In this document: one piece after another, positions 5,574 to 43,676 of the stretch
Position numbering within the stretch: position 1 is the first letter of the stretch
Layout: each line of letters starts with the position of its first letter
Assembly (NCBI GenBank): GCA_043811105.1
Contig: JBDRNK010000087.1
Coordinates: forward strand, 1 to 43,676
Length of the DNA stretch: 43,676 nucleotides
Source: Candidatus Uhrbacteria bacterium
GTDB lineage: Bacteria; Patescibacteriota; Patescibacteriia; UBA9934; CAZDDW01
Reading direction: 5' to 3'
Made by a program: the position numbers and the translations under genes
Notes under the pieces: generated by a model
What the model was told of the DNA's origin: nothing
The model's input: the letters and a program-made list of their open reading frames with translations, nothing else
Databases searched by the model: none

Positions 5574-5583
5574 GTGGAGAAGC

Positions 5584-5651
<68 letters not shown>

Positions 5652-6088: not shown

Positions 6089-6132
6089 TCGGTCTCCTAT
6101 CCGCCACGGGCGTCGAAAGTTGCGGGAACCTA

Positions 6133-6173
<41 letters not shown>

Positions 6174-6397
6174 ACCGGTTGTTCTGCCAAGGGCATTGCC
6201 GGGTAGCTACGTTCGGTTTGGATAAGCGCTGAAAGCATATAAGCGCGAAGCCGATCCCAAGATTAACTTTCATTATGAGATCCCTCCGAGATGAGGAGGT
6301 TGATAGGCTCTAGGTGTAAGCGTGGTAACACGTTCAGCCGAGGAGTACTAATAGATCCAGACTCTACAATTACTTAATAAGAATGTTTCGTTCTAGA

Positions 6398-12641: not shown

Positions 12642-13623
12642 ATGAAGGTTTATAAGAATGTTTTTAATGCAATAACCAAGCCGGAATCCCTTTTCCTGGC
12701 TTGGCAACGGTTTCGTAAGGGTAAAAGTAAACGCAAAGACGTAGCTCGGTTTGAGTGGAGTCTGGAGCAGAATATTTTTGAGTTACACCAAGATTTGGTC
12801 AGTGAAACATATCGACATGGCTCATACAGCGACTTTTTTATTGCTGATCCTAAATTACGCCACATCCACAAATCCATGGTTTGTGATCGGGTGGTTCATC
12901 ATGCTGTGTATCAGGTCTTGTATCCTATGTTTGATCAATCGTTCATCTTCGACAGCTATTCCTGTCGTCTAGGTAAAGGCACTCATGCTTCGGTGAATCG
13001 ACTCAAGGTCTTTGTTCGAAAAGTCAGCAGGAATTATACTGCTCCATGTTTTGCTCTTAAGTTTGACATTAAGAAGTTTTTTGATTCTGTAGATCATGAA
13101 ACTTTGTTGGATATCTTGAACCAAAAAATCTTCTGTACCAAAACAAATTGTTTGTTGGTGGAGATCGTGGAAAGTTTTTCAAAATTTCAGACCGTCGGGG
13201 GGGGGGTCGTTACTTGAAAAAACCAGACCTTGCGGTTTACCGATCGGGAATCTGACTTCTCAGTTGTTTGCCAATGTTTACATGAATGCATTTGATCATT
13301 TTGTTAAAGAAGAGTTGAGAATAAAGTATTATCTGCGATATACAGATGATGCCTTAATTATACACAAAGACCCAAGATATCTTAGTTTATTAGTTCCGTT
13401 TATTCAGGATTGGCTTTGGCAGAATCGGCGACTCTTACTGCATCCGAACAAGGTATCAATTTGTAAGCTTTCTCAAGGTATTGACTGGCTCGGGTACGTG
13501 GTTTTGCCACATTATCGAGTGTTGAGAACAAAGACGAAAAGAAGGATGTAAAGACAGTTGAATGAAGAAAACCTACCATCATATTTGGGAGTTCTGTCTC
13601 ATGCTAATACTTATAAATTATAA
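12642..13623 (+). pseudogene. DGR-type reverse transcriptase, disrupted by a frameshift and an in-frame stop
   Basis: Motifs CDRVVHHA, DSYSCRLGKGTH, FDIKKFFDSVDH, GLPIGNLTSQLFANVY (the DGR-type I/LGxxxSQ motif) and RYTDD. The frame breaks at G10 (13197-13206). An in-frame TAA at 13549-13551 is followed by ...SYLGVLSHANTYKL. Confidence 0.7.
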
Positions 13624-15275: not shown

Positions 15276-15450
15276 AGTTTACCAAATTTTTTAGATCTCG
15301 TCTAAGTTGTTGACATCAATATATTTTCAAGGTACTATATTGGCACTTAAGTTAAGTATAGGCCCGTAGCTTCCACCTACGCTCCTTCGGAGCTTCGGCG
15401 GACAGGCAGTTGGAATCACCAACTTCGCTATAGGCCTATCAAAATAACGT

Positions 15451-21942: not shown

Positions 21943-23028
21943 TTATTTTATTATTTTTTTATTTTTTGATTTTTTTATTAATACTCGGTGCACCGCTTTT
22001 ACAATATGCGGTGCGGTTAGTCCAAAATAGTTAAGTAATTTTTCAGGCGATCCGGATTGTCCAAAGCTGTCATCGATACCGATTCGTTCAAAAGGGGTGG
22101 GGCAGCAGTCACAAAGCACTTCAGCTACTGCACTACCAAGCCCTCCAGCAATCATATGTTCTTCTGCGGTAACAATTGCTCCAGTTTCGCTAGCGGCTTT
22201 AATAATTGCTTTGGTATCAATCGGTTTGATCGTATGCAAGTTGATTACCCGAGCATCTATGTTTTCGCTTCGAAGTTGTTCTGCTGCTTTCAGTGCTTCG
22301 TAAACGATCGGGCCACAGGCGATGATGGTTACATCTTTGCCTTTTCGTAAAGTTTCTGCGCGTCCGATTTTGAATGGGGTGGCTTTGGTTGTAAAAACCG
22401 GAGAAGCAGCTCGAGTAAATCTGATATAAACCGGACCTTTGATTTTAGCCGCAGCGACGGTTGCTTTCTTTGTTTCAATGGCGTCGCAAGGAACCAAGAC
22501 AGTCATGTTTGGTAGGGTTCGCATTAAGGCGATGTCTTCTAGCATTTGGTGAGTTGCACCATCAGGTCCAACTGATACTCCGGCATGTGCTCCCGCAATC
22601 TTAACATTTGTTTCAGACAAAGCAATACAAGTACGAATTTGTTCATAATTTCGTCCAGGACTAAATGCGGCATAGCTTGAGATAAATGGTACTTTGCCAG
22701 CTAATGCCATTCCAGCACCCATGGCTGCTAGTAATTGCTCATGAACTCCCAGTTGTACAAAGCGGTCCGGAAAAGCTACTTTAAAATCTTCGCAACGAGT
22801 GGACTCAGTTAGATCAGCACAAAGGACAACTACATTTTTATCGCGTCGTCCAGCCTCAACCAACCCTTCGCCATATCCGTTGCGGGTTGGAACCATTTTG
22901 ATTTTTGGATCAAATAATTTAGATTTCAATTTTGCTTGTGGGTTTATAGACATATTTCCTAGCCGCTTTAGCGGCGTTTGAGTTTCAGACCGGATCAGAT
23001 ATCCGTTAGAAGAATTTTTCCCAGCCAT
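21943..23028 (-). CDS. transketolase, C-terminal (pyrimidine-binding) subunit
   Basis: TRNGYGEGL...FVQLGVHEQLLAAMGAGMALAG...HAGVSVGPDGATHQ. The true start may be an internal Met (MSINPQ...). Confidence 0.85.
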   Translation of the reverse strand: MAGKNSSNGYLIRSETQTPLKRLGNMSINPQAKLKSKLFDPKIKMVPTRNGYGEGLVEAGRRDKNVVVLCADLTESTRCEDFKVAFPDRFVQLGVHEQLLAAMGAGMALAGKVPFISSYAAFSPGRNYEQIRTCIALSETNVKIAGAHAGVSVGPDGATHQMLEDIALMRTLPNMTVLVPCDAIETKKATVAAAKIKGPVYIRFTRAASPVFTTKATPFKIGRAETLRKGKDVTIIACGPIVYEALKAAEQLRSENIDARVINLHTIKPIDTKAIIKAASETGAIVTAEEHMIAGGLGSAVAEVLCDCCPTPFERIGIDDSFGQSGSPEKLLNYFGLTAPHIVKAVHRVLIKKSKNKKIIK

Positions 23029-23057
23029 CTCTGATGGCGTCTGATATCAGTACGGGA

Positions 23058-23954
23058 CTAAAGTCCCTGAGAATTCAGTGACTTCAAGGCCTTTTTCAAC
23101 TCCTCACCCTCCCTTGGTGGCTTACCGTGCCAGAGATGATCGTTTTCCATAAAATCAACACCTTTGCCTGGAATGGTGTGGCAGATAATAATTGTCGGAC
23201 GTTCCTGAATAGATTTGGCTTCACCTACCGCGTCAACAAATTCACGAATGTTGTGCCCATCGACTTCAATCACGTGCCAGTTAAAGGCTTCGAACTTATC
23301 GCGCAATGGTTCTAACGGACAAACATCCTCAGTGTTGCCATCGATCTGAATGTTGTTGCGATCTAGAACCACTGTCAGATTGTTCAGTCCGAATTTTGGT
23401 GCAACCAAGAAAGCCTCCCAATCGATCCCGCACTCAAGCTCTCCATCGCTGATAAAACAATAAGTGTGCCAGCGAGCTTTGTCCATCTTGGCCACCAAGG
23501 CACAGCCAACCGCTTGAGCGATTCCATCACCAAGAGGGCCTGAGGTGTTTTCAATTCCAGGTAAACGAGTTCGTTCAGGATGTCCCTGCAGTCGAGATCC
23601 GAACTGGCGAAGAGTGTCGAGTTCTTTGATCGGAAAATATCCAGCATGAGCCATGCATACGTATTGAACCGGGCAGTAGTGTCCGGCAGACAAGAACAAG
23701 CGGTCACGCTTTTTCCAATCAGGGTTCTTTGGATCATGTTTAAGGACATGAAAATAAAAAGCAGTCCAGATGTCAGCTGAGCCCAAAGGACCAGCCGAAT
23801 GACCGCTTCCAGCCTTGGCCAGCATTTTCATCATATCAATCCGAATTTCATGTGCTTTAGCCTCAAGTTGTTTTAGCTTGTTGTCGTGCATACCCGGCAG
23901 TAAAACTTTAAACTTTTTATATGTGGCTTGTTTACGAACCAAGCTAAAAACCAA
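23058..23954 (-). CDS. transketolase, N-terminal (TPP-binding) subunit
   Basis: GSGHSAGPLGSADIW, GHPE and FISDGELECG motifs. The likelier start is ATG at 23891 (MHDNKLKQ...). Confidence 0.85.
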   Translation of the reverse strand: MVFSLVRKQATYKKFKVLLPGMHDNKLKQLEAKAHEIRIDMMKMLAKAGSGHSAGPLGSADIWTAFYFHVLKHDPKNPDWKKRDRLFLSAGHYCPVQYVCMAHAGYFPIKELDTLRQFGSRLQGHPERTRLPGIENTSGPLGDGIAQAVGCALVAKMDKARWHTYCFISDGELECGIDWEAFLVAPKFGLNNLTVVLDRNNIQIDGNTEDVCPLEPLRDKFEAFNWHVIEVDGHNIREFVDAVGEAKSIQERPTIIICHTIPGKGVDFMENDHLWHGKPPREGEELKKALKSLNSQGL

Positions 23955-24137
23955 CAGCGGTTGGTGTGCTTAGCAGCCTTTCCAAACTACACCCGACAAC
24001 TAAATATTTAAAGTTTTCCTGCCGGGCATAACATTCCTATTTTAGCACAAATCGTGAATTTTTCTAAGCCAGTTTATCTGGCGTCCGAATTCACTCCGGA
24101 CATAAAGTCCGTTTGAAGTATATTAAAGAACTAAAAA

Positions 24138-24239
24138 GCGGGGTCATCCCCCTACGCTCCTATCGGAGCTTCGGAGGACAGGAGTGACCCCGCTTATATT
24201 TTGTCTGACCATGACAAGCTTACGCTTGTCGGTCCCTAC
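24138..24239. repeat. REP-like cluster: R3 nested in a hairpin, plus R1
   Basis: gcggggtca[ccccctacgctcctatcggagcttcggaggacagg]tgaccccgc at 24138-24193. R1 (minus orientation) at 24212-24239 abuts the stop of the adjacent gene. Confidence 0.65.
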
Positions 24240-26335: not shown

Positions 26336-29218
26336 ATGTCAGACGGAAGATCTAATTTTCCCAAAATGGAAGAGGAAATACTCAAGTTTTGGGAAGCAGA
26401 AAAGATTTTTGAAAAAACTTTATCTAAGGATTCGCCTCAGGGTGAATTTGTTTTTTATGAAGGGCCACCAACAGCTAACGGTAAGCCAGGAATTCATCAT
26501 GTTGAGGCTCGGGCGTTTAAAGACATTATTCCTCGCTACAAAACTATGTGTGGCTATCACGTCGGACGCAAGGGTGGTTGGGATACTCAAGGGTTGCCGG
26601 TTGAATTGGAAGTGGAAAAGCAGTTAGGTTTGTCTTGTCGGAAAGAGGTTGAGGAGTATGGGATAAAGGAATACAACGAAAAGTGTAAAGAAAGTGTTTG
26701 GAAATATTTAGATCAATGGATTGGTATGACCAAACGAATTGCTTATTGGTTGGATATTGATAATGCATACATTACTTATAAACCAGAATACATTGAGAGT
26801 TTGTGGTGGATTATTAAGCAGGTATGGGAACGTGATCTGTTGTATCAAGATTATAAAGTCTTGCCATACTGTACACGTTGTGGAACTTCTTTGTCTTCGC
26901 ACGAAGTTGCACAAGGATATAAAGAAGTTGAGGATCCTGCTGTCTACATTAAATTCAAAGTAAAGGATCATGCCGACACTTTTTTGGTGGCTTGGACAAC
27001 AACACCTTGGACCTTGATTTCAAATACTGCTTTGGCTGTTGGTCAAGATGTTGATTACGTAAAAGTCAAACAAGGTAATGAATTTTTGTGGCTGGCGCGT
27101 TCGCGAGCTGAAGCAGCTCTTGGTGCTGATTTTGAAATTATTGAAGAAGTGAAAGGGTCTGAATTGTTAGGAGTTGAGTACGAGCCGTTGTTTCCGTATT
27201 GGGAAGAAGCACGACAAGCAGCCGGGATTGAAGGTAAGGCACATTATGTGGTGGCTGCGGATTTTGTTTCTACAGAAGATGGTTCGGGAATCGTTCATAC
27301 AGCCGTGATGTATGGTGCTGAAGACTTTGAACTTGGAAATGAGATCGGCTTGCCGAAATTTCACATGATTGCTCCTGACGGGAAGTTTATTGAAGGTTCA
27401 GGGCCATTTACTGGGGTTTATGTAAAAAAAGCTGATGCTGGTATCACTGAAGACCTTCGAACTCGCGGTCTGTTACTCAAAGAAGAAAAAATTACACACA
27501 CATATCCATTTTGCTGGCGTTGTAAGTCTCCGTTGATTTATTACGCCATGGATTCTTGGTATATTCGCATGTCTTCTTTGCGCGACAAATTATTAACTGA
27601 GAATGACAAGATCCATTGGGAGCCGGATCATATTAAAGACGGCCGATTTGGTGAATGGTTACGAGAGGTTAAGGATTGGGCTTTTTCACGTTCACGTTAC
27701 TGGGGTACACCATTGCCGGTTTGGTGTTGTGAGTGTGGTCACATGGACTGTATCGGATCCTACGAGGAACTCAAGGACAAAGCCAAACAAGATCTTGATT
27801 TGGAAAATTTTGATCCGCATCGACCTTTTGTTGATGACTACACTATTGAATGTCCAAAGTGTCAGAAAGAAATGCATCGAGTCGAAGATGTGTGTGACGT
27901 TTGGTTTGATTCCGGTTGCATGCCTTTTGCCCAATGGCACTATCCATTTGAAAATAAAGAGTTGATTGATTCTGGTCAGCAGTTTCCTGGTGATTATATT
28001 TCAGAAGCGATTGATCAGACTCGTGGATGGTTCTACACTTTGCACGCTGTAGGTATTCTTCTTGATAAGGGCTTGGTTTACAAAAATTGTATTTGTCTTG
28101 GACATTTACTCGATGCTAAGGGCAAGAAGATGTCTAAGTCAATTGGTAATGTGGTTGAACCAATGGAGCAAATTGATAAGTATGGAGCTGATGCTGTGCG
28201 TTGGTGGATGTATACAGTTAATCAGCCGGGTGAATCTAAGAATTATGATGAGCGCGATGTTGATACGATTGTGAAAAAAGTATTTAACATTCTTTGGAAC
28301 GTTAAGACTTTTTATCAGATGTATGAACAGAAGTATGGTGTTTCGGATGGGAATGACACCCGCAAGTGTGTCAACATTCTTGACCAATGGATTTTATCTC
28401 GACTGAATAGCCTTATTGCTGATTCAACCAAATGGTTGGATGGTTACAAAGTAACTGAACCGGCTCGGGCAATTGCTGATTTTGTTACGGACCTATCAAC
28501 CTGGTATGTTCGTCGCAGTCGTGATCGATTTAAGAGTGAGAATGAGCGGGTTCGGACAGAAGCCATGGTTACCTTGCGGCATTGTTTGATTGAAGTAACA
28601 AAATTAATGGCTCCGTTTACTCCGTTTATTTCTGAGGATATTTATCGACAAATCGGTGGAGAAAAACAATCGGTTCATCTTGAAGATTGGCCAGTGGCTG
28701 ATGAAAAGTTGATTAACCAGGATCTGCTTGATCAAATGGATCAAGTGCGTCGAGTGGTTTCTGAAGCTTTAAAACAGCGTGAAGAAAAACAGTTGGCGGT
28801 TAAGCAACCGTTGGCAAAAGCAACTGTTCGTGGCATGAAAGCTCTCGACGATAGTTTACTTGAGTTGATCAAAGACGAAGTTAATATCAAAGAAGTTGTT
28901 TTTGCCACTGCTGGAGATTTTGCTGTTGAACTTGATACAGAGTTGACTCCGGAACTAAAACGCGAAGGCTATGTGCGAGAAATTGTGCGCAAGGTCAATG
29001 GGTTGCGCAAAGAAGCCGGTCTGACTATTGAAGATTCGATTGAGTTGTATGTTGTTAGCGATGCTGAACAGGTTCAGCTGACTTTACAAGAGCACCAAGA
29101 AGCAATCTTGTCCGGCACTTTGGCCAAAGAATTAAAAACAGAAAAAACCAATCTTGAACATTCGACAGATCTGAAATTGGGAGACGAACCTGTTTGGATA
29201 GCTATCAAAAAAATGTAG
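26336..29218 (+). CDS. ileS: isoleucine--tRNA ligase
   Basis: 960 aa. PPTANGKPGIHH (HIGH region), KMSKS, and a CP1 editing-domain-sized insertion. Confidence 0.95.
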   Translation: MSDGRSNFPKMEEEILKFWEAEKIFEKTLSKDSPQGEFVFYEGPPTANGKPGIHHVEARAFKDIIPRYKTMCGYHVGRKGGWDTQGLPVELEVEKQLGLSCRKEVEEYGIKEYNEKCKESVWKYLDQWIGMTKRIAYWLDIDNAYITYKPEYIESLWWIIKQVWERDLLYQDYKVLPYCTRCGTSLSSHEVAQGYKEVEDPAVYIKFKVKDHADTFLVAWTTTPWTLISNTALAVGQDVDYVKVKQGNEFLWLARSRAEAALGADFEIIEEVKGSELLGVEYEPLFPYWEEARQAAGIEGKAHYVVAADFVSTEDGSGIVHTAVMYGAEDFELGNEIGLPKFHMIAPDGKFIEGSGPFTGVYVKKADAGITEDLRTRGLLLKEEKITHTYPFCWRCKSPLIYYAMDSWYIRMSSLRDKLLTENDKIHWEPDHIKDGRFGEWLREVKDWAFSRSRYWGTPLPVWCCECGHMDCIGSYEELKDKAKQDLDLENFDPHRPFVDDYTIECPKCQKEMHRVEDVCDVWFDSGCMPFAQWHYPFENKELIDSGQQFPGDYISEAIDQTRGWFYTLHAVGILLDKGLVYKNCICLGHLLDAKGKKMSKSIGNVVEPMEQIDKYGADAVRWWMYTVNQPGESKNYDERDVDTIVKKVFNILWNVKTFYQMYEQKYGVSDGNDTRKCVNILDQWILSRLNSLIADSTKWLDGYKVTEPARAIADFVTDLSTWYVRRSRDRFKSENERVRTEAMVTLRHCLIEVTKLMAPFTPFISEDIYRQIGGEKQSVHLEDWPVADEKLINQDLLDQMDQVRRVVSEALKQREEKQLAVKQPLAKATVRGMKALDDSLLELIKDEVNIKEVVFATAGDFAVELDTELTPELKREGYVREIVRKVNGLRKEAGLTIEDSIELYVVSDAEQVQLTLQEHQEAILSGTLAKELKTEKTNLEHSTDLKLGDEPVWIAIKKM

Positions 29219-29271
29219 CGGAACCCTTTAGGGTTCCATTTCAAAATGGAAGGCTAAAGCCTTCCTCTACA
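29215..29271 (+). repeat. REP-like repeat R2 (double hairpin)
   Basis: gtagcggaaccctttagggttccat ttc aaaatggaaggctaaagccttcc tctaca. Its TAG is the ileS stop codon. Confidence 0.75.
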
Positions 29272-29273
29272 TT

Positions 29274-30137
29274 ATGGAAAAGATTAAAAGAACAAACACC
29301 CTCCTCATCGTGCCAGTAAATGATGAAGAGGCTTACACGATTGCTGAGCTTGGTGATGCGATCAAGATGCAAGTGCATCGCTCCAAGCAACCACATGGTG
29401 CTCGACTTGAAGACGAGTCTGGGGTGTTGGATTTGGTTAAGAAATCAGATTGCTCAACAGTAATTGTTGTCGAAATGCCAGGACCTGAAATCGAAGAGCA
29501 AATTCGCAATCTTGGCAAAGAATTAATTATCATTGATCATCATCGTTACACAGATCTAGATCGCGCCCACGACTCTGAAGGTCATGTGTTGCCTAGTTCG
29601 TTAGAGCAGTTTTTGAATTTGGTCGAACTGTCAGATCAGGAACTGGATGATCTTGGATACAATGCAAAAATGGTTCGAGCAACAGGGTTGTGGGATGAGG
29701 GCTATATCTGGGCCTTGATCGAGAACGGATATTCAACTAAAGAAATAGAACAGTTTGAAGAGCACAAGGAAATAATTGAGAACAAACTAGGGTTGCCAAC
29801 AGAAACTGAAGAATCGCGCCAAGCTGCTGAGCGAGCTTGGAAAGATCGTCAAGAATGGAACGGTTTTCAAATAATGCATTCTGCTGATGACCAAGCGCAT
29901 ATTCGATCTTTGGTTTCACGAATGGCTGCTAAGCATTACAAGAAGCGCACGCCAGTAATTATTTCTGAACGGGCGGGCAAACGCATTTACGTTCAAGAGT
30001 CAGACCGGGCTGTTGATCTGTACAAAGAATTCGGCGGCTTCATGTATGGGGGAGATTGGAATTGGGGGTATGATAATAATGAGAGAAAAAAACAACTGAA
30101 GTTGGATGAAGTAAAAAAAATTTTGAATAAAAAATAG
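29274..30137 (+). CDS. hypothetical protein with a DHH-like motif
   Basis: LIIIDHHRY. C-terminal FGGFMYGGDWNWGYDN motif shared with 31185-31285. Confidence 0.55.
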   Translation: MEKIKRTNTLLIVPVNDEEAYTIAELGDAIKMQVHRSKQPHGARLEDESGVLDLVKKSDCSTVIVVEMPGPEIEEQIRNLGKELIIIDHHRYTDLDRAHDSEGHVLPSSLEQFLNLVELSDQELDDLGYNAKMVRATGLWDEGYIWALIENGYSTKEIEQFEEHKEIIENKLGLPTETEESRQAAERAWKDRQEWNGFQIMHSADDQAHIRSLVSRMAAKHYKKRTPVIISERAGKRIYVQESDRAVDLYKEFGGFMYGGDWNWGYDNNERKKQLKLDEVKKILNKK

Positions 30138-31359: not shown

Positions 31360-31388
31360 TTGACAAAACTATATTTTGGTGCTATACT
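31360..31388 (+). promoter_or_regulatory. strong sigma70-type promoter for the downstream ncRNA
   Basis: TTGACA (31360-31365), 17-nt spacer, TATACT (31383-31388). Confidence 0.6.
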
Positions 31389-31394: not shown

Positions 31395-31878
31395 AGATGA
31401 TTCAAAAATAATCTTGTGAGAGAGCCCTGGCCGGGGATAAGGCAAAGAGTAGAGAGTAGAAAGTAGAAGGTAGAAAGGAATAAGCTTATATAAGCTCCTT
31501 TCTACTCTCTACTATCTACTTTCTACCCAAAACGGATGTGTAGATCTCTTTCCGAGGTAAACAGGTCTGTTTATTTTTTTCACTCAGAAACCTGGGGGGA
31601 GAGTCCCCCTTCGCTCCTGAAGGAGCTACGGGGGATAGATAAACCGTTACCAGTAGGGCTTATGCCTGAGAGGTGCGGTGAGCTTAACAGGCTTAATCAG
31701 ACCAGGCTTAGGCTTGCTCTATAGTCATAGTTAAGCTCACGAGCTTATATCTGCTGCTTGCAGCGTTCACTAAGTTCACATCACTCCCAGATTTCTGAGT
31801 GAAAACTCAGCTTAAGGCCCTGTAATATTCTAGTAAACTAGATATAGGACAAAGGTGGTTCGAATCCACTCGGGGCCA
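31395..31878 (+). ncRNA. unclassified ~480-nt structured RNA with a tRNA-like 3' end (tmRNA-like, not confirmed)
   Basis: Own promoter and no credible ORF. Long-range pairs: cactcagaaa (31580) with tttctgagtg (31793); gtgagcttaac (31676) with gttaagctcac (31730). 3' end: GGAC-aaa-ggtgg-TTCGAAT-ccact-cggggcc-A. A candidate 5' acceptor strand ggccctg lies at 31816. No G3:U70. Confidence 0.45.
31447..31527 (+). repeat. REP-like long hairpin R4 (GTAGA-repeat arms) inserted in the ncRNA
   Basis: gagtagagagtagaaagtagaaggtagaaagga ... tcctttctactctctactatctactttctac. A second copy lies at 42555-42630. Confidence 0.75.
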
Positions 31879-33290: not shown

Positions 33291-33310
33291 TTCATTCAAC
33301 TCAACAAAGT

Positions 33311-33438
33311 CCAGCAGTCCTTGCTGGCACGTGCCTCGAACACTGTTCGAGGCCTCCACCCTGTACCAGACGTCTCTAACGAGCCGTCGGTACAGGGCCC
33401 TACCAGAGTTTCTGAAGTAATTCAGAAACTCTGGTGGG
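33311..33438 (+). repeat. island junction J1: hairpins Ha, Hb, Hc and a short inverted-core element
   Basis: Ha 33311-33327, Hb 33333-33353, Hc 33359-33397 (ccctgTAcc/ggTAcaggg variant). ccctaccagagtttctgaa-gtaa-ttcagaaactctggtggg at 33398-33438. Confidence 0.75.
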
Positions 33439-33479
33439 AGTAGTTTCCAGATTTTTAAAATGTCCAACAAGGAGGATTC

Positions 33480-34364: not shown

Positions 34365-34376
34365 TCCTTTCAAAGC

Positions 34377-34580
34377 CCAGCAGTCCTTGCTGGCACGTGC
34401 CTCGAACCCTGTTCGAGGCTCCACCAGAGTTATTCAAACAAGTATCATGTCTCAAGTAACCCACCTTCGCCAAGGCTTCGGTGGGCAGGCAAGTATCAAG
34501 TTAGGAAGATATCGCGATATTTTCCATCCTTGATCCTTGAACCTTGTTACTTGAAACTTTCCTTGGATACCCCTGGTGGG
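34377..34580 (+). repeat. island junction J2: Ha, Hb, empty Hc site, inverted-core element invaded by host repeats
   Basis: Ha 34377-34393, Hb 34399-34419. ctccacc|agag has no Hc. ccaccagag (34421) pairs with ccctggtggg (34571). The interior 34440-34557 consists of host-type caagt-arm and ccaccttcgccaaggcttcggtgggcagg repeats. Confidence 0.7.
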
Positions 34581-34602
34581 ATACAATCTAAACGGAGGAA
34601 AG

Positions 34603-35699: not shown

Positions 35700-35743
35700 C
35701 TTACACGTACGACACCGGAGTCGCACTCGCGATTCCAAATTTA

Positions 35744-35890
35744 CCCTGAACCAGACATCTCTAACGAGCCGTCGGTTCAGGGCCCCACCTGAGATGTTAA
35801 GAGATTTTTCTAACGGGGTTTATCCCCGGTCTGACTGTCAGACGCCAGATGAACTGGCTAAGAAAAATTTCTTAAATCCTCTGGTAGGGG
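35744..35890 (+). repeat. island junction J3: Hc plus element II (copy 1)
   Basis: Hc 35744-35782. Element II 35783-35890: closing stem ttaagagatttttct/agaaaaatttcttaa around three small hairpins (gggg..cccc, tctga..tcaga, gccag..ctggc). Confidence 0.75.
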
Positions 35891-35898
35891 ATCAAAAA

Positions 35899-35925
35899 AC
35901 CGCCATGTAGGCGGTGGTTCGAATC
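35899..35925. terminator. hairpin between convergent genes, overlapping a T-arm-like 13-mer
   Basis: aaaaaaccgcc-atgt-aggcggt. ggtggttcgaatc (35913-35925) is identical to 31854-31866. Confidence 0.45.
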
Positions 35926-35936
35926 TTTACAAATAT

Positions 35937-36287
35937 TTATCGTAACTCTAGCTGGACATGTTGAGCTATCTGTTGTAACTGTGATTCGAGTCGTTCATAT
36001 TTAGATTGCAAAGCAATAAGTTCAGTCTCGAGTTTATTGTGTAAACTAATGAAACCGTCGACTTGGGTAATGATTTCAGATTTTGCTTCATTTACTACTT
36101 CCTTAATTTCAGTACCCAGCTCACCTTTTAAGTTAGAGATTTCAAAAGAGAGATCATCCTTCGAGGTCATGTGAGATTCTAACTCATGCAGATCATCCTT
36201 TGAAGCCGCATTATCTTTAATAAATTCAACAGTATCAAGTACTTGTTGTAGAGCGTTATCTTGATCCATACAAATGTAATTTAACAT
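35937..36287 (-). CDS. coiled-coil protein, AT-rich (paralog of 39116-39613)
   Basis: Start chosen at MLNYICMDQ by homology with the paralog. Shared C-terminus LETEL.ALQSKYERLESQLQQIAQH.QLELR. The line 36001-36060 hand-counts to 35% GC. Confidence 0.6.
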   Translation of the reverse strand: MLNYICMDQDNALQQVLDTVEFIKDNAASKDDLHELESHMTSKDDLSFEISNLKGELGTEIKEVVNEAKSEIITQVDGFISLHNKLETELIALQSKYERLESQLQQIAQHVQLELR

Positions 36288-36310
36288 ATTGTCGAGTAGA
36301 TGACAATGTT

Positions 36311-36409
36311 CTACCAGAGATGAATATTTCTTACCCAACTTGTTGGGGTTTTAAATCAAGACGGGAATAAATTCCCTGAGAAGTATTAAGAAATATCGTT
36401 TCTGGTGGG
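36311..36409 (+). repeat. island element I, copy 1 (structured leader candidate)
   Basis: ctaccagag...tctggtggg bracket. Inner hairpins cccaa-cttg-ttggg and gggaat-aa-attccc. 33 nt upstream of ATG 36443. Confidence 0.7.
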
Positions 36410-36442
36410 AGAAAAATTACATTCAATAAGAAAGGAAACGAG

Positions 36443-36700
36443 ATGACTGAGAAACAGCAGGAAAAGATGCTGACCGAGCTGAACTGGCTCAAGCGCTGGT
36501 TGGTTCGCCAGCCGCGCTGGTTGCAGATGGGCTTCTTGCTCATCTCAGGCCTTTTGCTCGGAGCTGACCTGATTCTGGTCGACCCGATTCCGCTGATCGA
36601 TGAAGCCTTGCTCATCTGGTCCACTTGGACCGGGTTCAAGGTGGCGGTCAACGATGGTCCACGGTATCGGCGTTTGGAAGCGCCGCAGGAGGAGTCATGA
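36443..36700 (+). CDS. small membrane protein, DUF1232/YkvA-like (tentative); paralog of 39855-40115
   Basis: 85 aa. ADLILVDPIPLIDEALLIWS resembles the DUF1232 D.IPD.IP..G..DD motif. Confidence 0.6.
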   Translation: MTEKQQEKMLTELNWLKRWLVRQPRWLQMGFLLISGLLLGADLILVDPIPLIDEALLIWSTWTGFKVAVNDGPRYRRLEAPQEES

Positions 36701-36939
36701 AGTATTGGCTCTTCGAACAGATTCCGCGGGTCTGGGTAACGGTCGTTCTGATCGCTGTCTGGTCAATTCTGGCCACGGCCACGCTAGCTGCCTGGCCCTT
36801 ACCCACCAGTTATGATGTCTGGGTCGGGCGTGGTCTTGGCTGTATACTCCTGACCTCCATTCCGGCCTTGTTGACCGAGCCGATTATTTTCGCACTCTGG
36901 TGGCCAGGCAAGCCCTTCGAGCTTCGGCCACGAAGCTGA
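36697..36939 (+). CDS. small membrane protein
   Basis: ATGA overlap with the upstream stop. aggaggag SD. 80 aa. The C-terminal KPFELRPRS is encoded by the shared repeat. Confidence 0.55.
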   Translation: MKYWLFEQIPRVWVTVVLIAVWSILATATLAAWPLPTSYDVWVGRGLGCILLTSIPALLTEPIIFALWWPGKPFELRPRS

Positions 36940-37119
36940 ACCTTCCCCACTCGCCCGGAACCATTCACGGTTCCGGGCCCTACCCTGAACCAGACGTCTC
37001 TAGCGAGTCGTCGGTTCAGGGCCCTACCAGAGATGAATATTTCTTACCCAACTTGTTGGGGTCAAGACGGGAACAAGTTCCCTGAGAAATATTATTTCTG
37101 GTGGGGGACGAAGTTTTTT
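36911..37119 (+). repeat. island junction J5: He, Hf, Hc, element I (copy 2)
   Basis: He gcttcg-gcca-cgaagc 36921-36936. Hf 36954-36977. Hc 36983-37021. Element I 37024-37105. 36983-37119 is identical to 37903-38039. Confidence 0.8.
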
Positions 37120-37185
37120 ACAACACGGCTTTACAGAGCCAAGGTCCGTCGAACGGGCCGAGCAATAAAGAAAGATAGGAAAGAC

Positions 37186-37902: not shown

Positions 37903-38039
37903 CCCTGAACCAGACGTCTCTAGCGAGTCGTCGGTTCAGGGCCCTACCAGAGATGAATATTTCTTACCCAACTTGTTGGGGTCAAGACGGGAACAAGTTC
38001 CCTGAGAAATATTATTTCTGGTGGGGGACGAAGTTTTTT
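37903..38039 (+). repeat. island junction J6: Hc plus element I (copy 3)
   Basis: 137-bp perfect copy of 36983-37119. Confidence 0.85.
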
Positions 38040-38064: not shown

Positions 38065-38469
38065 ATGTTGAATACAGAAAGAACCTTGCGCGATTTCGTC
38101 TTTCTGGTGTACCAGTTGGCAGTGAACGATAACGATCAGTTGCCGCCAACACCGTGGACCGACATCAAGATCACGCCGGCCAAGTACGCTGTTCTGCTGC
38201 GTCAGGGCTGGCAACGGGCTCAGAAGGGTCGAATGCAGATGTGTCTGCGCTTTGATCTTCCGGATGGGTCTGTGGCCTATCTCGGTAACGGTGACCCTCA
38301 GGGTCATAACAACGATATCTGGCACGGTCGGATCGAGGGTCCGATCGCCGAAAGCCTCGGCTGCCGCTGGATCGAGTTTGGTGTCATGGCCGATGCCGAA
38401 GTCGACACCAAGGGTCTGTTGGCTGCAACCAAACGTAGCCGGCCCTTCGAGCTTCGGCCACGAAGCTGA
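38065..38469 (+). CDS. hypothetical protein
   Basis: gaaggag SD 6 nt before ATG 38065. 134 aa. The C-terminal RPFELRPRS is encoded by the shared repeat. Confidence 0.55.
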   Translation: MLNTERTLRDFVFLVYQLAVNDNDQLPPTPWTDIKITPAKYAVLLRQGWQRAQKGRMQMCLRFDLPDGSVAYLGNGDPQGHNNDIWHGRIEGPIAESLGCRWIEFGVMADAEVDTKGLLAATKRSRPFELRPRS

Positions 38470-38615
38470 ACCTTCCCCACTCGCCCGGAACCATTCACGG
38501 TTCCGGGCCCTACCAGAGTTGTTCAATAATTTTTCTAACGGATCTCTGATCCGGTTCTGAATTCGAACGCCATCAGAGATGGCTAAGAAGAACTTCTGAA
38601 CATATCTGGTAGGGG
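38441..38615 (+). repeat. island junction J7: He, Hf, empty Hc site, element II variant
   Basis: 38442-38514 is identical to 36912-36984. gggccctacc|agag has no Hc. Element 38510-38615 is bracketed by ctaccagag / atctggtagggg. Confidence 0.8.
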
Positions 38616-38640
38616 ACAATTACAAACAGAGGAGGTACAA

Positions 38641-38890: not shown

Positions 38891-39071
38891 CACTCGCCCG
38901 GAACCATTCACGGTTCCGGGCCCCACCCTGAACCAGACGTCTCTAACGAGTCGTCGGTTCAGGGCCCCACCTGAGATGTTAAGAGATTTTTCTAACGGGG
39001 TTTATCCCCGGTTTGTAAGTCAGACGCCAGATAAACTGGCTAAGAAAAACAGCTTAACACATCAGGTTGGG
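38891..39071 (+). repeat. island junction J8: Hf, Hc, element II (copy 2)
   Basis: Hf 38897-38920, Hc 38926-38964, element II 38965-39071 (closely similar to 35783-35890 over its first ~50 nt). Confidence 0.8.
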
Positions 39072-39115
39072 TCAATCAAAAAACCGCTTTGTCAGCAGTT
39101 TTGTTCTTAAAAGGA

Positions 39116-39613
39116 TTATCGCAGTTCCAATTGAATATGTTGAGCTATCTGTTGTAATTGCGATTCAAGACGTTCGTACTTGGATTGAAGAGCCACAAGT
39201 TCAGTTTCAAGTTTGTTGTGTAGATTGATAAAGCCATCGATTTGAGTGACTATTTCAGATTTTGCACCAGAAATTATTTGTTCAACATCGGCTTTGACTA
39301 CTGCGTTATCTTTGACAAATTCAACTGTTTCTTGCACCCCAGCCATATCCTCTCTGAGAGAACTAACGTCTGTTTTTACTCCAGACATATCTTCTTTGAG
39401 AGAACCAACGTCTGTTTTAAGAGAACCAACATCTGTTTTTACCCCAGCCATATCCTCTTTAAGGGAGCTGACATCTGTTTTAAGAGAACCAACATCTGTT
39501 CGAACTGAACCAACCGCCACTTCCAATCCTTTGATTGCTTCCCGGTTTGAGGTGGTGGTATCTAGAATTTTTTCAAGTAGTGATTGTTGATCCATACAAA
39601 AGTAATTTAACAT
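39116..39613 (-). CDS. coiled-coil protein with an internal 21-nt tandem repeat expansion (paralog of 35937-36287)
   Basis: 165 aa. Heptad-like repeats DVGSLKT/DVSSLKE/DMAGVKT. Same N- and C-termini as the paralog. Confidence 0.65.
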   Translation of the reverse strand: MLNYFCMDQQSLLEKILDTTTSNREAIKGLEVAVGSVRTDVGSLKTDVSSLKEDMAGVKTDVGSLKTDVGSLKEDMSGVKTDVSSLREDMAGVQETVEFVKDNAVVKADVEQIISGAKSEIVTQIDGFINLHNKLETELVALQSKYERLESQLQQIAQHIQLELR

Positions 39614-39636
39614 ATTGTCGAGTAGATGACAATGTT

Positions 39637-39818
39637 CTACCAGAGATTAGTATTTCTTACCCAATTTACCTGGCCGCCGAAGCTTTAGCGAAGGCGGGTT
39701 GGGGTTGTGATGGGAACGACAAACTTTAGTTTGTCAAATGACAGACTAACGTCTGTCAGTCCCTACAAGACGGGAATAAATTCCCTGAGAAGTATTAAGA
39801 AATATAATTTCTGGTGGG
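39637..39818 (+). repeat. island element I, copy 4, interrupted by host REP-like repeats
   Basis: Same ends as copy 1. About 100 nt are inserted (39668-39767), containing cctggccgccgaagctttagcgaaggcgggttgggg and tgacagactaacgtctgtcagtccctac. Confidence 0.75.
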
Positions 39819-39854
39819 AGAAAAGGTTTTACAATCAATACGAAAGGGAACAAA

Positions 39855-40115
39855 ATGACTGAGAAACAGCAAGAGCAAATGCTGACTGAGCTGAACTGGC
39901 TCAAGCGCTGGTTGATTCGTCAGCCTCGCTGGTTGCAGGTGAGCTTCTTGTTCATCTCAGCCGCGCTGTTCGGTGTCGACATGATCGCGCTCGACCCGCT
40001 GCCCTTCATCGACGAAGCCATTCTGGCCTGGTCCACCTGGACCGGGTTCAAGGTGGCGGTCAACGACGGTCCGCGGTATCGGCGCTTGGATGCACCCGAG
40101 TCCAAATCTACCTAA
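39855..40115 (+). CDS. small membrane protein, DUF1232/YkvA-like (tentative)
   Basis: 86 aa. Closely similar to the 36443-36700 product (MTEKQQE.MLTELNWLKRWL.RQPRWLQ...). Confidence 0.6.
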   Translation: MTEKQQEQMLTELNWLKRWLIRQPRWLQVSFLFISAALFGVDMIALDPLPFIDEAILAWSTWTGFKVAVNDGPRYRRLDAPESKST

Positions 40116-40441: not shown

Positions 40442-40449
40442 ATATCTTG

Positions 40450-40608
40450 CCCCGGAACCTATCGTGGTTCCGGGGCCCTACCCTGAACCAGACGTCTCTA
40501 ACGAGCCGTCGGTTCCGGGCCCCACTTAAGCACAGCAGTTTGATGAATATCGAAACTCTCTCTCAATATTCATTAAACCAGCAATGCTGTGCTTAGGTGG
40601 GGTTTTTT
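40450..40608 (+). repeat. island junction J10 / right end: Hf variant, hybrid Hc, terminal hairpin plus T-run
   Basis: ccccggaacc-tatcgt-ggttccgggg 40450-40475. Hc with an Hf-type 3' arm at 40481-40519. cccacttaagcacagca...tgctgtgcttaggtgggg followed by TTTTTT (40603-40608). Confidence 0.7.
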
Positions 40609-40643: not shown

Positions 40644-42560
40644 ATGTGTGGAATCGTTGGCTATATAGGTAAAAAACAGGCCCTGCCGATCTTAATTGAT
40701 GGGTTAAAGCGTTTGGAATACCGTGGTTATGATTCGGCTGGGGTGGCGTTGTTGGGTGAGGGGGGTTGTCAGATTATTAAGAGTCCGGGGAAGATAGTAG
40801 GATTAGAAGAGAAAGTCTCAAGTTTCAAGTCTCAAGTCTCAAGTGCTGGAATCGCTCATACTCGCTGGGCGACTCATGGGCCTCCGACTGAGGCCAATGC
40901 TCATCCGCATACTGATTGCTCTGGCAAAATTGCCTTAGTTCATAACGGAATTGTTGAGAACTATCAGGAATTGAAACAAGAATTACAGGAGAAGGGACAT
41001 CAGTTTCGTTCAGAAACGGATACTGAAGTGTTGGTGCATTTGATTGAAGATTGTTTAAATAATGTAGCGGAAGGCTTTAGCCTTCCATGTCAGCAAAATG
41101 GAACCCTCCCACCTTCGCCAAGGCTTCGGCGGGCAGGAAAGGGTTCCTCTACATTAGAAATGGCAACCAGAAAGGCATTAGAACAAGTGCGCGGCACTTA
41201 CGGTATTGCTGTAGTTTCATCTGATCATCCAGATCAAATCGTGATTGCTCGCATGGGCAGCCCGATTGTTATTGGTGTGGGCACTGATGATTTTTTTGTT
41301 GCTTCAGATGCTTCAGCTTTGTTAAGTCATACCCGCAATGTAATTTATCTTGACGATGGCGAGATGTGTGTTTTACGACCGGACGGTTATTCGATTAAGA
41401 CTTTGGGTAATCGATCAGTGGCTAAAGAACCAGAAGTTATTGAGTGGTCAGCTGAAGATGTTAAAAAAGGTGGACATCCGCATTTCATGAAAAAGGAAAT
41501 GATGGAACAGCCAAAAGTTTTGGTTGATTCTATTCGCGGTCGTTTAAAACCAAAAGATGGAAAAGCCGTGCTTGGTGGTTTAAGCGATGTTGCCGATCGT
41601 CTGCGTCAAATTGATCGACTAATTATTGTTGCCTGCGGTAGTGCCTACTATTCCGGCCTGGTCGGCGAGTATATGTTGGAAGAATATGCTGGTATTCCAG
41701 TGGAAGTAGATCTGGCTTCAGAGTTTCGTTATCGCAAACCGATTATTACAGATCGCACAGCCGTGCTTGCAGTTAGTCAATCCGGAGAAACCGCAGACAC
41801 ACTAGCAGCGATCCGTGAGGCAAAAGAAAAAGGTGCTTTAACCTTGGGAATCGTTAATACGGTTGGATCGACCATAGCTCGGGAAACCGATGCCGGTATT
41901 TACAATCATGCCGGCCCGGAAATTGGAGTGGCTTCAACTAAGGCTTTTTTATCGCAAGCAACAGTCTTTGCTTTATTAACCATGTTTCTTGGTCGACAGC
42001 GATCAATGTCAATGGTCATGGGTAAGCGTATAGCTGATGAGATTCAGATGCTTCCAGACAAGTTGCAATCAATCATTAACCAGTTTGATCAGATCTCGCT
42101 TCTGGCTCAGAAATACAAAGACATGCAAAATTGTTTGTACTTGGGACGAAAATACTGTAGTCCAATTGCTTACGAAGGAGCTTTGAAACTTAAAGAGATT
42201 TCTTATATTCACGCTGAAGGTTATGCAGCTGGAGAAATGAAACACGGTCCGATCGCTTTGATTGATTCAAACTTTGTTTCCGTTGTGCTATGTCCAAAAG
42301 ACTCGGTTTATGAAAAAACTATATCTAACATCGAAGAACTTAAGGCTCGTGGTGGTTCGATCATCGCCGTGACAACTGAAGGCAACGATTCGATTAAACA
42401 AGTCGCAGATGATATAATCTATATACCAAAAACTTTAGAAATGTTAACTCCAATTTTGGCTGTGGTTCCGTTGCAAATTTTTGCTTACGCAATTGCTACA
42501 GCTCGTGGTTATGATCCGGACATGCCCAGGAATCTGGCTAAAGCCGTGACCGTGGAGTAG
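40644..42560 (+). CDS. glmS: glutamine--fructose-6-phosphate aminotransferase
   Basis: MCGIVGYIG N-terminal nucleophile. GIAHTRWATHG. Two SIS domains. C-terminal ...AKAVTVE. Confidence 0.95.
   Translation: MCGIVGYIGKKQALPILIDGLKRLEYRGYDSAGVALLGEGGCQIIKSPGKIVGLEEKVSSFKSQVSSAGIAHTRWATHGPPTEANAHPHTDCSGKIALVHNGIVENYQELKQELQEKGHQFRSETDTEVLVHLIEDCLNNVAEGFSLPCQQNGTLPPSPRLRRAGKGSSTLEMATRKALEQVRGTYGIAVVSSDHPDQIVIARMGSPIVIGVGTDDFFVASDASALLSHTRNVIYLDDGEMCVLRPDGYSIKTLGNRSVAKEPEVIEWSAEDVKKGGHPHFMKKEMMEQPKVLVDSIRGRLKPKDGKAVLGGLSDVADRLRQIDRLIIVACGSAYYSGLVGEYMLEEYAGIPVEVDLASEFRYRKPIITDRTAVLAVSQSGETADTLAAIREAKEKGALTLGIVNTVGSTIARETDAGIYNHAGPEIGVASTKAFLSQATVFALLTMFLGRQRSMSMVMGKRIADEIQMLPDKLQSIINQFDQISLLAQKYKDMQNCLYLGRKYCSPIAYEGALKLKEISYIHAEGYAAGEMKHGPIALIDSNFVSVVLCPKDSVYEKTISNIEELKARGGSIIAVTTEGNDSIKQVADDIIYIPKTLEMLTPILAVVPLQIFAYAIATARGYDPDMPRNLAKAVTVE
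41064..41153 (+). repeat. 90-nt nested REP-like insertion (R3 inside R2), in frame within glmS
   Basis: gtagcggaaggctttagccttccat gtcagc aaaatggaaccct[cccaccttcgccaaggcttcggcgggcagg]aaagggttcc tctaca. Encodes VAEGFSLPCQQNGTLPPSPRLRRAGKGSST. Confidence 0.75.
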
Positions 42561-42630
42561 AGAGTAGAAGGTAGAAGGTAGAAAGGAATAAATTTAACTC
42601 CTTTCTACTCTCTACTTTCTACCTTCTACT
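42555..42630 (+). repeat. REP-like long hairpin R4 filling the glmS to HD-gene spacer
   Basis: gagtagagagtagaaggtagaaggtagaaagga...tcctttctactctctactttctaccttctac. Its first TAG is the glmS stop, and the ATG of the next gene follows at 42631. Confidence 0.8.
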
Positions 42631-43676
42631 ATGTGGTTATCAGGAAAACGAAAACTAACCCTTCACGCACGTGACCTGGATGAAGTCTTGGGGAATTTTG
42701 AGCAAGACCGTTTTTTAATTGAATGGACCGATCAGGTGATCAAAGAGACAACTAAAAATTTCCCGATTCTAACTGATATATTTGCCAGTCCGCAATCAGC
42801 CAACAAACACGCCGAAGGTCCGTTGTTGGAAGATCATGTTCGTAAGATATTAATGACTCTTTACGCTTTGGTTGAGGGTCGGTTTAGTTTGTTGGAGGTT
42901 GAGGAGTTTCGACGAATGAAAGGGTATGAGGGTGAATTTGAAGAATTAGAGGAAACAATAAAAGAACGGGCTGGTATGTTTAAGGTCTATGCTCTGATTC
43001 ATGATATTGGAAAAGCGGCAACAATTTCATTTTCCGCTCCTGAAGGAAGTAAAGGTGCGGAATATGGTTTTGCCCAGTCAGTGGCGATTGGTTGGGACGA
43101 CTTTGCCGGTGATCAACGTTTTTCAGCTAGAAAAAAATATGATGACCTTTATGCTACTTTTGCCGTAAATCGATCCGGACAAGATCAAAAAGTAATTCAG
43201 GCGGAGTTTTTCCGTGAGTTCCAGATATCGATTTCCAATCATGGTCATGCTAGGTTGATTTTTGCCCCTGAGTTAAATAAGGTTGTGCGTGCATTAGCTA
43301 AAGAAAACAGACTACCTGAAAATGATATTGATTTGCTCGAAGAATTAATTGCTGTTCATATGGATACAGCTCATTATTTTTGGGGCAAAGCTGATCCTCA
43401 AGACTATGCACATTTTGTTGAATATTCAGCCGGTATCGGTCAGGACGCTGATGATTTTTTGGACTTGCTTCAGGCTGCTGCATTTTTAGATAAGGTTTGT
43501 GGTTCATGGAAATTGTCAGCCGGTGGCTATTGGCACAGTTGTGAAATATTAACTAATTTTTTGCAGGCTGAACATGATTACGCACCTTGGCGACGAGAGG
43601 CTGCTGAAGAGCGTCGGGCTAAGCGAGAGTTGGAAAAGCGACGAGAGATATATCGTCAGGTTGGTTTGGATGGTGA
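42631..43676 (+). CDS. HD-domain protein (3'-partial, runs off the window)
   Basis: Open frame from ATG 42631 to the window end, so not in the track (no stop). HAEGPLLEDHVRKIL ... YALIHDIGKA (H...HD). Confidence 0.65.
   Translation, partial: MWLSGKRKLTLHARDLDEVLGNFEQDRFLIEWTDQVIKETTKNFPILTDIFASPQSANKHAEGPLLEDHVRKILMTLYALVEGRFSLLEVEEFRRMKGYEGEFEELEETIKERAGMFKVYALIHDIGKAATISFSAPEGSKGAEYGFAQSVAIGWDDFAGDQRFSARKKYDDLYATFAVNRSGQDQKVIQAEFFREFQISISNHGHARLIFAPELNKVVRALAKENRLPENDIDLLEELIAVHMDTAHYFWGKADPQDYAHFVEYSAGIGQDADDFLDLLQAAAFLDKVCGSWKLSAGGYWHSCEILTNFLQAEHDYAPWRREAAEERRAKRELEKRREIYRQVGLDG

Follow-up and report, generated by a model that had tools for sequence, protein, structure and literature searches.

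A 44-nt intergenic hairpin in a Patescibacteria gene array resembles GTAG-tagged repetitive extragenic palindromes

A 44-nt hairpin unit (CTGAACC...GGGCCCYACC), here called Hc, recurs between the small genes of a gene array on contig JBDRNK010000087.1, and the locus raises the question whether so small a unit is mobile or is only copied together with its surroundings. We analyzed a 43.7-kb stretch of this Patescibacteria genome (the window), to which all window-wide counts refer. A preliminary description had regarded Hc as a discrete insertion unit with filled and empty sites and a duplicated CCYACC target, i.e., as the footprint of a tiny mobile hairpin or of recombination between short repeats. 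According to our analysis Hc is a real, sharply bounded discrete unit, but not one that duplicates its target. We consider it slightly better than an even bet (roughly 0.55) that Hc represents a family of GTAG/GTGG-tagged stem-loops similar to the repetitive extragenic palindromes (REPs), which are arranged head-to-tail in 3' untranslated regions and gained or lost at the tag boundaries. Mobility of Hc itself is plausible.

Six copies of Hc with 89-100% identity are present, all on the plus strand between 33.3 and 40.5 kb and starting at positions 33361, 35746, 36985, 37905, 38928, and 40483. Each copy lies on the coding strand of the upstream gene, begins 9-95 nt past a stop codon, and is located directly 5' of a long palindromic element (E). 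Hc consists of a G+C-rich hairpin of 39 nt (CCCTGAACC-AGACG..CGTC-GGTTCAGGG) with an outer stem of 9 bp and an inner stem of 4 bp, followed by the unpaired tail CCCYACC; the stem takes in two C residues upstream of the unit as it was originally delimited. The stems fold well, with z values of about -4 to -11. The 5' end of Hc meets four different contexts, namely the tails of the hairpins Ha and Hb and two unrelated sequences distal to open reading frames (ORFs), and long elements of four kinds (E7, E_A, E_B, and E9) follow its 3' end; this supports its description as a discrete unit. GGGCCCYACC with at most one mismatch was found 12 times (2.2 expected) and CYACCWGAG 13 times (0.7 expected).

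The two pairs of filled and empty sites on which the insertion model was based have the reported similarity. Positions 36912-36984 and 38442-38514 are 100% identical, the first stretch being followed by Hc and AGAG and the second by AGAG directly, and positions 33305-33360 and 34371-34425 share 95% identity. However, the long elements that follow AGAG(TT) are unrelated within each pair of sites (E_A and E_B in one, E7 and E8 in the other), so that the supposedly empty partners are not precise absences of Hc; these pairs are mosaic junctions. One pair is homologous on both sides, E4 (Hb followed by E_B, 38483-38616) and E5 (Hb, Hc, and E_B, 38896-39071). MAFFT places Hb of E4 opposite Hc of E5, because Hb and Hc are paralogous hairpins, and which of the two units is the extra one is ambiguous.

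The direct repeat GGGCCCCACC was indeed found at 38918 and 38962, but the flanking YCYACC supposed to accompany every copy is missing in two of the six, where the upstream sequence is AATTTACC (copy at 35746) or CTTTCGCC (copy at 37905), and the claim of a duplicated target therefore fails. The final CC in front of these two copies belongs to the Hc stem (CCCTGAACC/GGTTCAGGG), and the repeat-less copy at 37905 sits in a 143-nt block with 98.6% identity to another part of the array. At the copy starting at 40483, the 3' copy of the repeat reads CCCCACT. Where an upstream repeat is present, it is the constitutive 3' tail of the preceding hairpin (Hb or Ha), which is kept without Hc at E4 (Hb) and E8 (Ha); CTACC occurs also at E1 and E10. 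With Hb upstream the repeat spans 16 of 17 nt (CGGTTC[C/A]GGGCCCTACC) because Hb and Hc are paralogous. The apparent target duplication is thus formed by the tags of two consecutive units.

Three sister hairpins, Ha, Hb, and Hx, occur in the same array. Hb is a hairpin of 26 nt with a 10-bp stem and shares CCC[G/T]GAACC...GGTTC[C/A]GGGCCCYACC with Hc, with a compensatory exchange of G:C to T:A between them. The stems of Hc, Hb, and Ha are perfect Watson-Crick helices. The families end with ...GAGGC(C)TCCACC (Ha), ...CCGGGCCCTACC (Hb), and ...CAGGGCCCYACC (Hc), and Hx is followed by ...CCCCACT; each of them keeps its tail with or without Hc after it. On the complementary strand the tail CCCYACC reads GGT[A/G]GGG and is located immediately 5' of the hairpin; GGTAGGG or GGTGGGG is present in all copies of Hc, Hb, and Ha. 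The tagged units (Hx, Ha, Hb, and Hc) are stacked head-to-tail, 0-3 per site, between the stop codon of a gene and the E element. When the 9 nt 5' of the perfect hairpins of the window are considered, no tetranucleotide is more enriched than GTAG (found 21 times versus 2.7 expected), and it adjoins unrelated stems, namely GGAACCC, GGAAGGC, GACAGGC, TGACAGAC, and those of Ha, Hb, and Hc. Host DNA contains the tagged families R1 (GTAG-C-GGAACCC...) and R2 (GTAGGGACC-GACAGGC...), which are dispersed over 10-41 kb of the window.

Copied blocks within the array show where its modules break. Block A (35743-36684) matches 38925-40096 with 80-84% identity and begins exactly at the 5' end of Hc. Block B, the 143-nt block mentioned above, comprises Hc, E_A, and 20 nt and matches 36983-37125. 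Block C corresponds to the identical stretches 36912-36984 and 38442-38514 and contains in 73 nt an ORF tail, Hx, and Hb; it begins inside two unrelated ORFs (36912-36939 and 38442-38469) and supplies both with the same last nine codons and stop (PFELRPRS-stop). All sharp breakpoints of the three blocks coincide with hairpin/tag boundaries. On the minus strand the breakpoint is positioned immediately 5' of GGTRGGG, and at the junction with E it is preceded by CT (CTCT^GGTAGGG).

Other small hairpins of this genome are present as insertions. E10 corresponds to E1 (36261-36420) with additional insertions of 30 nt (39668-39698) and 53 nt (39711-39763), and the flanks are 95-97% identical; neither insertion shows a target-site duplication. 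The 30-nt hairpin element recurs at 34460-34493 and 41108-41141, and the 53-nt insert includes an R2-type hairpin with the tag GTAGGGAC. A further case is glmS (40644-42560), which has an in-frame insert of about 27 amino acids compared to E. coli GlmS (residues ~136-167, window positions 41049-41153). The insert is formed by a head-to-head GTAG doublet with GTAG outside (41063-41153; GTAGC-GGAAGGC..; ..GGGTTCC-TCTAC), and the 30-nt hairpin is nested in its second loop. R1 forms dimers with GTAG outside both here and at 29213-29275; the latter doublet is intergenic and its GTAG provides the TAG stop codon of IleRS (29216-29218), an example of tags serving as stop codons. The insertions in E10 compared to E1 and in glmS make DNA-level mobility of hairpins in this genome plausible.

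REPs have stems of 6-13 bp, GTAG, GTRG, or GTGG tags, a dinucleotide spacer, and long self-pairing loops, the latter described for the families GTAG-3 and GTAG-14; they lie downstream of ORFs, intragenic cases are known, and head-to-tail dimers exist but are rare (PMC3733652). GTAG-tagged REPs, bacterial interspersed mosaic elements (BIMEs), and REP doublets forming hairpins (REPINs) are known from Proteobacteria and other phyla (PMC3733652, PMC2817692, PMC8266576). For cleavage, the transposase TnpAREP uses a CT dinucleotide on the 5' or 3' side of the REP structure; GTAG is crucial for its activity and in some systems acts as a guide (PMC8266576). Like REPs, Hc is a short hairpin rich in G+C that bears at one end, separated by 2 nt from the stem, an unpaired GT[A/G]G tag; its loop is complex and pairs with itself, it lies just downstream of ORFs, several families exist per genome, and clusters and dimers occur. 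In size, too, Hb and Hc agree with REPs, small palindromes of about 20-40 bp whose stems measure 6-13 bp. On the Hc side, CTCT^GGTAGGG has CT immediately 5' of the tag, where TnpAREP cuts, and there is no target duplication. The agreement of the Hc breakpoints with the CT/GTAG cleavage rule of TnpAREP is suggestive, but not proof.

If Hc is REP-like, whole tagged units would be gained or lost at the tag boundaries, most likely by the route known for REPs, in which one strand is nicked and rejoined directly on the 5' side of the tag (minus strand, CTCT^GGTRGGG). The enzyme might be similar to the REP-associated tyrosine transposases (RAYTs), which belong to the HUH type, and have its gene in another part of the genome. 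Shuffling and homogenization of the units would then result from unequal recombination or gene conversion involving the 10-17-nt repeats. In the transcript the stacks would probably serve as 3' stabilizing or terminating structures beside E folded as sense-strand RNA. As for the two origins offered in the preliminary description, recombination between short repeats is viable, and a tiny mobile hairpin of the REP type, without target-site duplication, is plausible for Hc by analogy with the other hairpins of the window.

A number of observations weigh against a REP-like nature of Hc. All 12 units of Hc, Hb, and Ha (six, four, and two, respectively) are confined to 7.2 kb, the other 34 kb of the window being free of them, and Hc copies were found only within a 7-kb island, whereas REPs are typically dispersed around the chromosome. 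Hc always occupies the same relative site at the 5' foot of an E element. The most recent copying events moved blocks B and C rather than Hc alone, and since the duplications of blocks A and B can account for four of the six Hc copies, an independent lone 44-nt insertion was not observed. The Hb-Hc and Ha-Hc pairs are head-to-tail, whereas REP dimers are usually head-to-head or tail-to-tail. Transposase genes (RAYT/Y1, integrase, or other) are absent from the window, and a Pfam scan of 40 window ORFs gave no match to Y1_Tnp (PF01797). As the stems of Hc, Hb, and Ha are all Watson-Crick paired, G.U asymmetry does not discriminate between selection on DNA and selection on RNA. With the exact Hc loop pattern, no match was obtained in GTDB genomes, IMG/VR, and JGI metagenomes, and nearly all of the 19 metagenome and 30 GTDB matches to a looser stem-plus-tail pattern are chance matches in high-GC coding DNA. 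Unlike REPs, moreover, the Hc stack is always adjacent to a long palindrome, and the tag pairs with the 3' arm of the latter.

The sole convincing match outside the window, a likely relative of Hc, was found on a contig resembling the candidate phyla radiation (CPR; JACCDV010386045.1, reverse strand, ~754-830), in an intergenic region 60 nt past a stop codon. It has the structure CCCTGAACC-[23-nt self-pairing loop]-GGTTCAGGGCCCCACC, i.e., stem (9 bp) and tail (CCCCACC) are the same as in Hc whereas the loop differs, and is followed by CCCACC...GGGCAAG and a GTAG-CTCGC-GAA-GCGAG hairpin, with a tRNA gene close by. It adjoins other hairpin elements that are also present in the window. Blastn of the island against phage and plasmid collections gave no match, and the same was true for a protein search of the Logan and ENA assemblies with a spurious ORF running through Hb, Hc, and E_B. 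Literature searches retrieved no report of REPs for Patescibacteria. The positions of all hairpin units and long elements are listed in Table 1.

Table 1. Hairpin units and long palindromic elements of the gene array, with positions in the window.
Feature	Position	Strand	Characteristics
Hc copy 1	33359-33404	+	compensatory stem change CTGTACC/GGTACAG (A:T to T:A); Ha tail CCTCCACC before, E7 after
Hc copy 2	35744-35789	+	no tagged hairpin upstream (AATTTA, then CC); left edge of segmental duplication A
Hc copy 3	36983-37028	+	hairpin and tail CCCTACC; Hb tail before, E2 after
Hc copy 4	37903-37948	+	9 nt past stop codon; no upstream repeat (CTTTCG, then CC); inside block B
Hc copy 5	38926-38971	+	Hb before, E5 after; "filled" partner of E4
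Hc copy 6	40481-40526	+	one stem mismatch (GGTTCC); tail CCCCACT; E9 partner strand covaries with tail
Hb	36953-36984	+	hairpin GCCCGGAACC-ATTCAC-GGTTCCGGGC and tail CCTACC; Hc paralogue
Hb	38483-38514		further copy
Hb	38896-38927		further copy
Hb	40449-40482		further copy
Ha	33333-33360	+	hairpin GCCTCGAAC-ACT-GTTCGAGGC and tail CTCCACC
Ha	34399-34425		second copy; abuts E8 directly, without Hc
Hx	36920-36952	+	hairpin AGCTTCG-GCCA-CGAAGCT, then ..CCCCACTC; overlaps ORF stop codon
Hx	38450-38482		second copy; identical to 36920-36952
E1	36309-36411		E_A type
E2	37022-37106	+	E_A type; basal helix CCCTACCAGAG/TTTCTGGTGGGG; 5' strand is the Hc tail
E3	37942-38026		E_A type
E4	38508-38616	+	E_B type; only Hb before; "empty" partner of E5
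E5	38965-39071		E_B type
E6	35783-35890		E_B type
E7	33398-33440	+	simple near-perfect hairpin ACCAGAGTTTCTGAA-GTAA-TTCAGAAACTCTGGT; same basal motif
E8	34419-34581	+	same basal motif; nested 30-nt hairpin at 34460-34493
E9	40519-40601	+	last long hairpin of the island; basal helix covaries (CCCCACTTAAGCA/TGCTTAGGTGGGG); T-run after, terminator-like
E10	39635-39820		E_A type

Among the other explanations, the one that survives best, although we regard it as clearly less probable than a REP-like family, assumes that Hc lacks dedicated mobility. Hc would then be a functional RNA stem-loop of the 3' untranslated region (a stabilizer or attenuator) and part of the intergenic architecture of the gene array; its copies would all be products of segmental duplication, gene conversion, and slippage at the 10-17-nt repeats. 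All Hc copies are co-oriented with the genes at a fixed site between stop codon and E, copies 2 and 5 belong to one duplication of ~1 kb, and copies 3 and 4 belong to one of 143 nt. With 95% identity, copies 2 and 5 are better conserved than block A otherwise (80-84%), in agreement with purifying selection or conversion. However, four upstream and four downstream contexts with exact breaks at the unit ends are hard to obtain by homology-driven events alone; the junctions of Hc with the Hb tail and with TTTCG have only 2 nt of microhomology in common. The presence of the same tag beside unrelated hairpins across host DNA, once within a coding sequence, and the clean hairpin insertions distinguishing E10 from E1 also argue against it.

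The properties of the long elements speak for a role of this region as RNA. As sense RNA, the E_A elements are 9-15 kcal/mol more stable than as antisense RNA, and they contain 4-6 G.U pairs versus 0-5 (0-1 for E1-E3). The interior of E_B is a conserved structured motif composed of M1 (TTCTAACGG-hairpin-CCGG) and M2 (ACGCC-hairpin-GGCTAAGAAA), whose hairpins covary, with compensatory changes in seven of nine pairs; no Rfam match was obtained for M1/M2. Without the basal stem, this core recurs at the host operon for split transketolase, both between the genes and upstream of them (minus strand, 22960-23060 and 24050-24120). The stacks and the E elements are probably transcribed and functional. 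CPR arrays coding for homologues (55-58% identical) of a 294-amino-acid protein of the island have type-III hammerhead cores at the same intergenic positions between small genes, which suggests punctuation at the RNA level. These are located on contigs L001 (9596-9645 and 11329-11378), L002-L004, and L005 (~1130-1218). Their scores with Rfam Hammerhead_3 (22-24 bits) are below the gathering threshold, and the core CTGATGA-stem-GAAA is exact (CTGATGA-GTCC-AAAA-GGAC-GAAA). The arrays carrying them have their own long structured intergenic repeats, and no hammerhead core was found in the window.

In a rather speculative extension, which we consider unlikely, the tagged hairpins and E would together represent an undescribed intergenic "punctuation" system of Patescibacteria gene arrays. 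Every small-gene unit would be closed by a stack of REP-like units and a long hairpin, with a nick or cleavage motif (CTCT^GGTRGGG on both arms) hidden in the basal helix of the hairpin. At the DNA level, an HUH enzyme would load, remove, or shuffle units and whole gene modules at this motif; alternatively, the motif might be an RNA processing site where other CPR lineages have hammerhead ribozymes. Hc would be the smallest mobile module of such a system.

All E elements have the basal helix CCYACCWGAG/CTCWGGTRGG, and in 10 of 10 the tail/tag of the last unit is its 5' strand. Compensatory variants of the helix occur in E5 (A/T swap) and E9 (TAAG/CTTA). This arrangement is reminiscent of the attC sites of integrons and of clusters of attC sites lacking an integrase (CALIN), where each of the small, mostly co-oriented ORFs is accompanied by an imperfect palindrome that is conserved at its ends and variable in its center. 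In a corresponding model, which we judge improbable, the E palindromes would be the recombination sites of a cassette system, either attC-like or with HUH nick sites (CTCT^GGTRGGG) on each arm, CCYACC^WGAG would be the crossover, and Hc a 44-nt "mini-cassette" or accessory module. In agreement with it, each of ten small-ORF units has downstream of it, in one orientation, an imperfect palindrome whose ends are conserved and whose center (40-190 nt) varies, the GC content is heterogeneous and above that of the host, and the island adjoins a tRNA-like fragment. The module breakpoints lie at the ACC^ junction, inside the conserved end of the palindrome as in attC, and the basal helix of E6 is chimeric, with a 5' arm of the E5 type and a 3' arm of the E4 type. 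In contrast to integrons, neither RYYYAAC/GTTRRRY core sites nor a gene for an integrase (IntI) or HUH protein are present in the window, the duplicated blocks neither start nor end at the 3' arms of E, contrary to cassette excision, and the pairing of E_A is strand-asymmetric and RNA-like. Moreover, the palindrome interiors hold structured motifs that also occur in host operons without the basal stem, and Hc has no counterpart in attC.

The idea that Hc is a miniature DDE-type transposon with its stem arms as 9-bp terminal inverted repeats and staggered insertion at CCYACC^WGAG duplicating 7-10 bp, for which the perfect 10-nt repeats at copies 3 and 5 (9 of 10 at copy 6, 7 of 10 at copy 1) might be cited, is largely refuted and very improbable, as the repeat is missing at two of the six copies including one in the 98.6%-identical block, the "target" is the same at every site and exists without Hc as Hb/Ha tail or E foot, its extension to 16 of 17 nt with Hb upstream stems from paralogy, 35-44 nt is below the size of known miniature transposons, the sister hairpin insertions lack target-site duplications, and the window holds no transposase.

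Two other types of small mobile elements are also similar in part. The palindrome-associated elements derived from IS200/IS605 (PATEs) have in common with Hc a hairpin-dependent single-strand HUH chemistry, insertion beside a specific short sequence without target-site duplication, and an element end resembling the target. They differ in having two different subterminal hairpins (left and right end) and a size above 100 nt, whereas Hc is a single 39-nt hairpin. The Rickettsia palindromic elements (RPEs), reportedly described by Ogata and colleagues in 2000, are said to be small palindromic repeats invading genes. They resemble the hairpins of this genome in being inserted both between genes and, in frame, within housekeeping genes, as is the case here for GlmS. 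However, RPEs have a size of ~100-150 bp and no GTAG tag, and Hc was not seen inside a gene.

Several known identities were considered and rejected. Three Rfam passes over Hc, Hb, and E for known RNA families or self-cleaving ribozymes gave only noise, even at E<=10. In a tRNA-like CCA minihelix (...GGGCCCTACCA), the gap between stem and CCA would be 4 nt, and by inspection the loop is not a T-loop. An intrinsic terminator was rejected for Hc since CCCYACC and then E follow without a T-run and a terminator scan did not report Hc; only E9 ends in a T-run. An integron attC site was rejected on the basis of the E ends (CCYACCWGAG/CTCWGGTRGG) without RYYYAAC/GTTRRRY core sites and with no integrase domain in the window.

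The hairpins are part of a GC-rich island (50-60% GC, ~31.9-40.6 kb) with about ten small-ORF units, in whose ORFs no Pfam domain was found; an exact-sequence lookup of its 294-amino-acid protein gave no record. It is bounded by glmS on one side and on the other by a sub-threshold tRNA-like fragment (31816-31878), which has a canonical T-arm and lies just ahead of the island. A near-consensus promoter (TTGACA-17-TATACT with TG) is located at 31360-31388, and large GTAGA-rich palindromes (31447-31530 and 42555-42640) bracket the island and glmS. Two paralogous coiled-coil proteins are encoded antisense to the array on the minus strand (35937-36287 and 39116-39613), the second with 21-nt (7-amino-acid) tandem repeats at 39315-39514. 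Directly upstream, each of the two ORFs has an E_A element with a -35/-10-like match on the minus strand.

The remainder of the window contains a bacterial 23S rRNA gene, a 5S rRNA gene, and tRNA-Ala as host landmarks as well as housekeeping genes of ~40% GC (IleRS, split transketolase genes, rpiB, rpe, and glmS). For one window protein the homologues are named Patescibacteria, Gottesmanbacteria, or Magasanikbacteria. Among the sampled relatives of a host protein, the nearest shows only 65% protein identity, and its contig has neither the island nor such hairpins. The 23S rRNA gene (1950-6366) has large insertions, is ~1.5 kb longer than the model, and holds an ORF for a LAGLIDADG endonuclease (4361-4942) and a group I intron (5697-6016). 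Two ORFs, 12642-13217 and 13264-13551, together make up a split reverse transcriptase (RVT_1), which could be a disrupted retroelement or an enzyme of the type found in diversity-generating retroelements. A hairpin family with a conserved 4x4 internal loop (CCNCC-T[T/A]CG-stem...stem-CT[T/A]C-GGNGG-CAGG) was found at 15372-15450, 24147-24182, ~31596-31632, and 34460-34493; in front of the copy that lies upstream of tRNA-Ala, the 5' end of this tRNA is partly duplicated (GGCCCGTAGCT).

The repeats help to explain why related CPR arrays are assembled into contigs of 1-2 kb, and they mark intergenic regions that gene callers may read through. Most worth further study are the long palindromes with their common basal helix, the covarying core that is also present in a host operon, and the hammerheads in homologous arrays. 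Should Hc and its relatives prove to be true REPs, the reduced genomes of the Patescibacteria/CPR would be added to those with GTAG-tagged REPs and, by implication, with RAYT-like processing of single-stranded DNA. Such elements would also reshape genes there, by providing stop codons, by giving unrelated ORFs the same C-terminus, and by adding about 27 amino acids in frame to GlmS.

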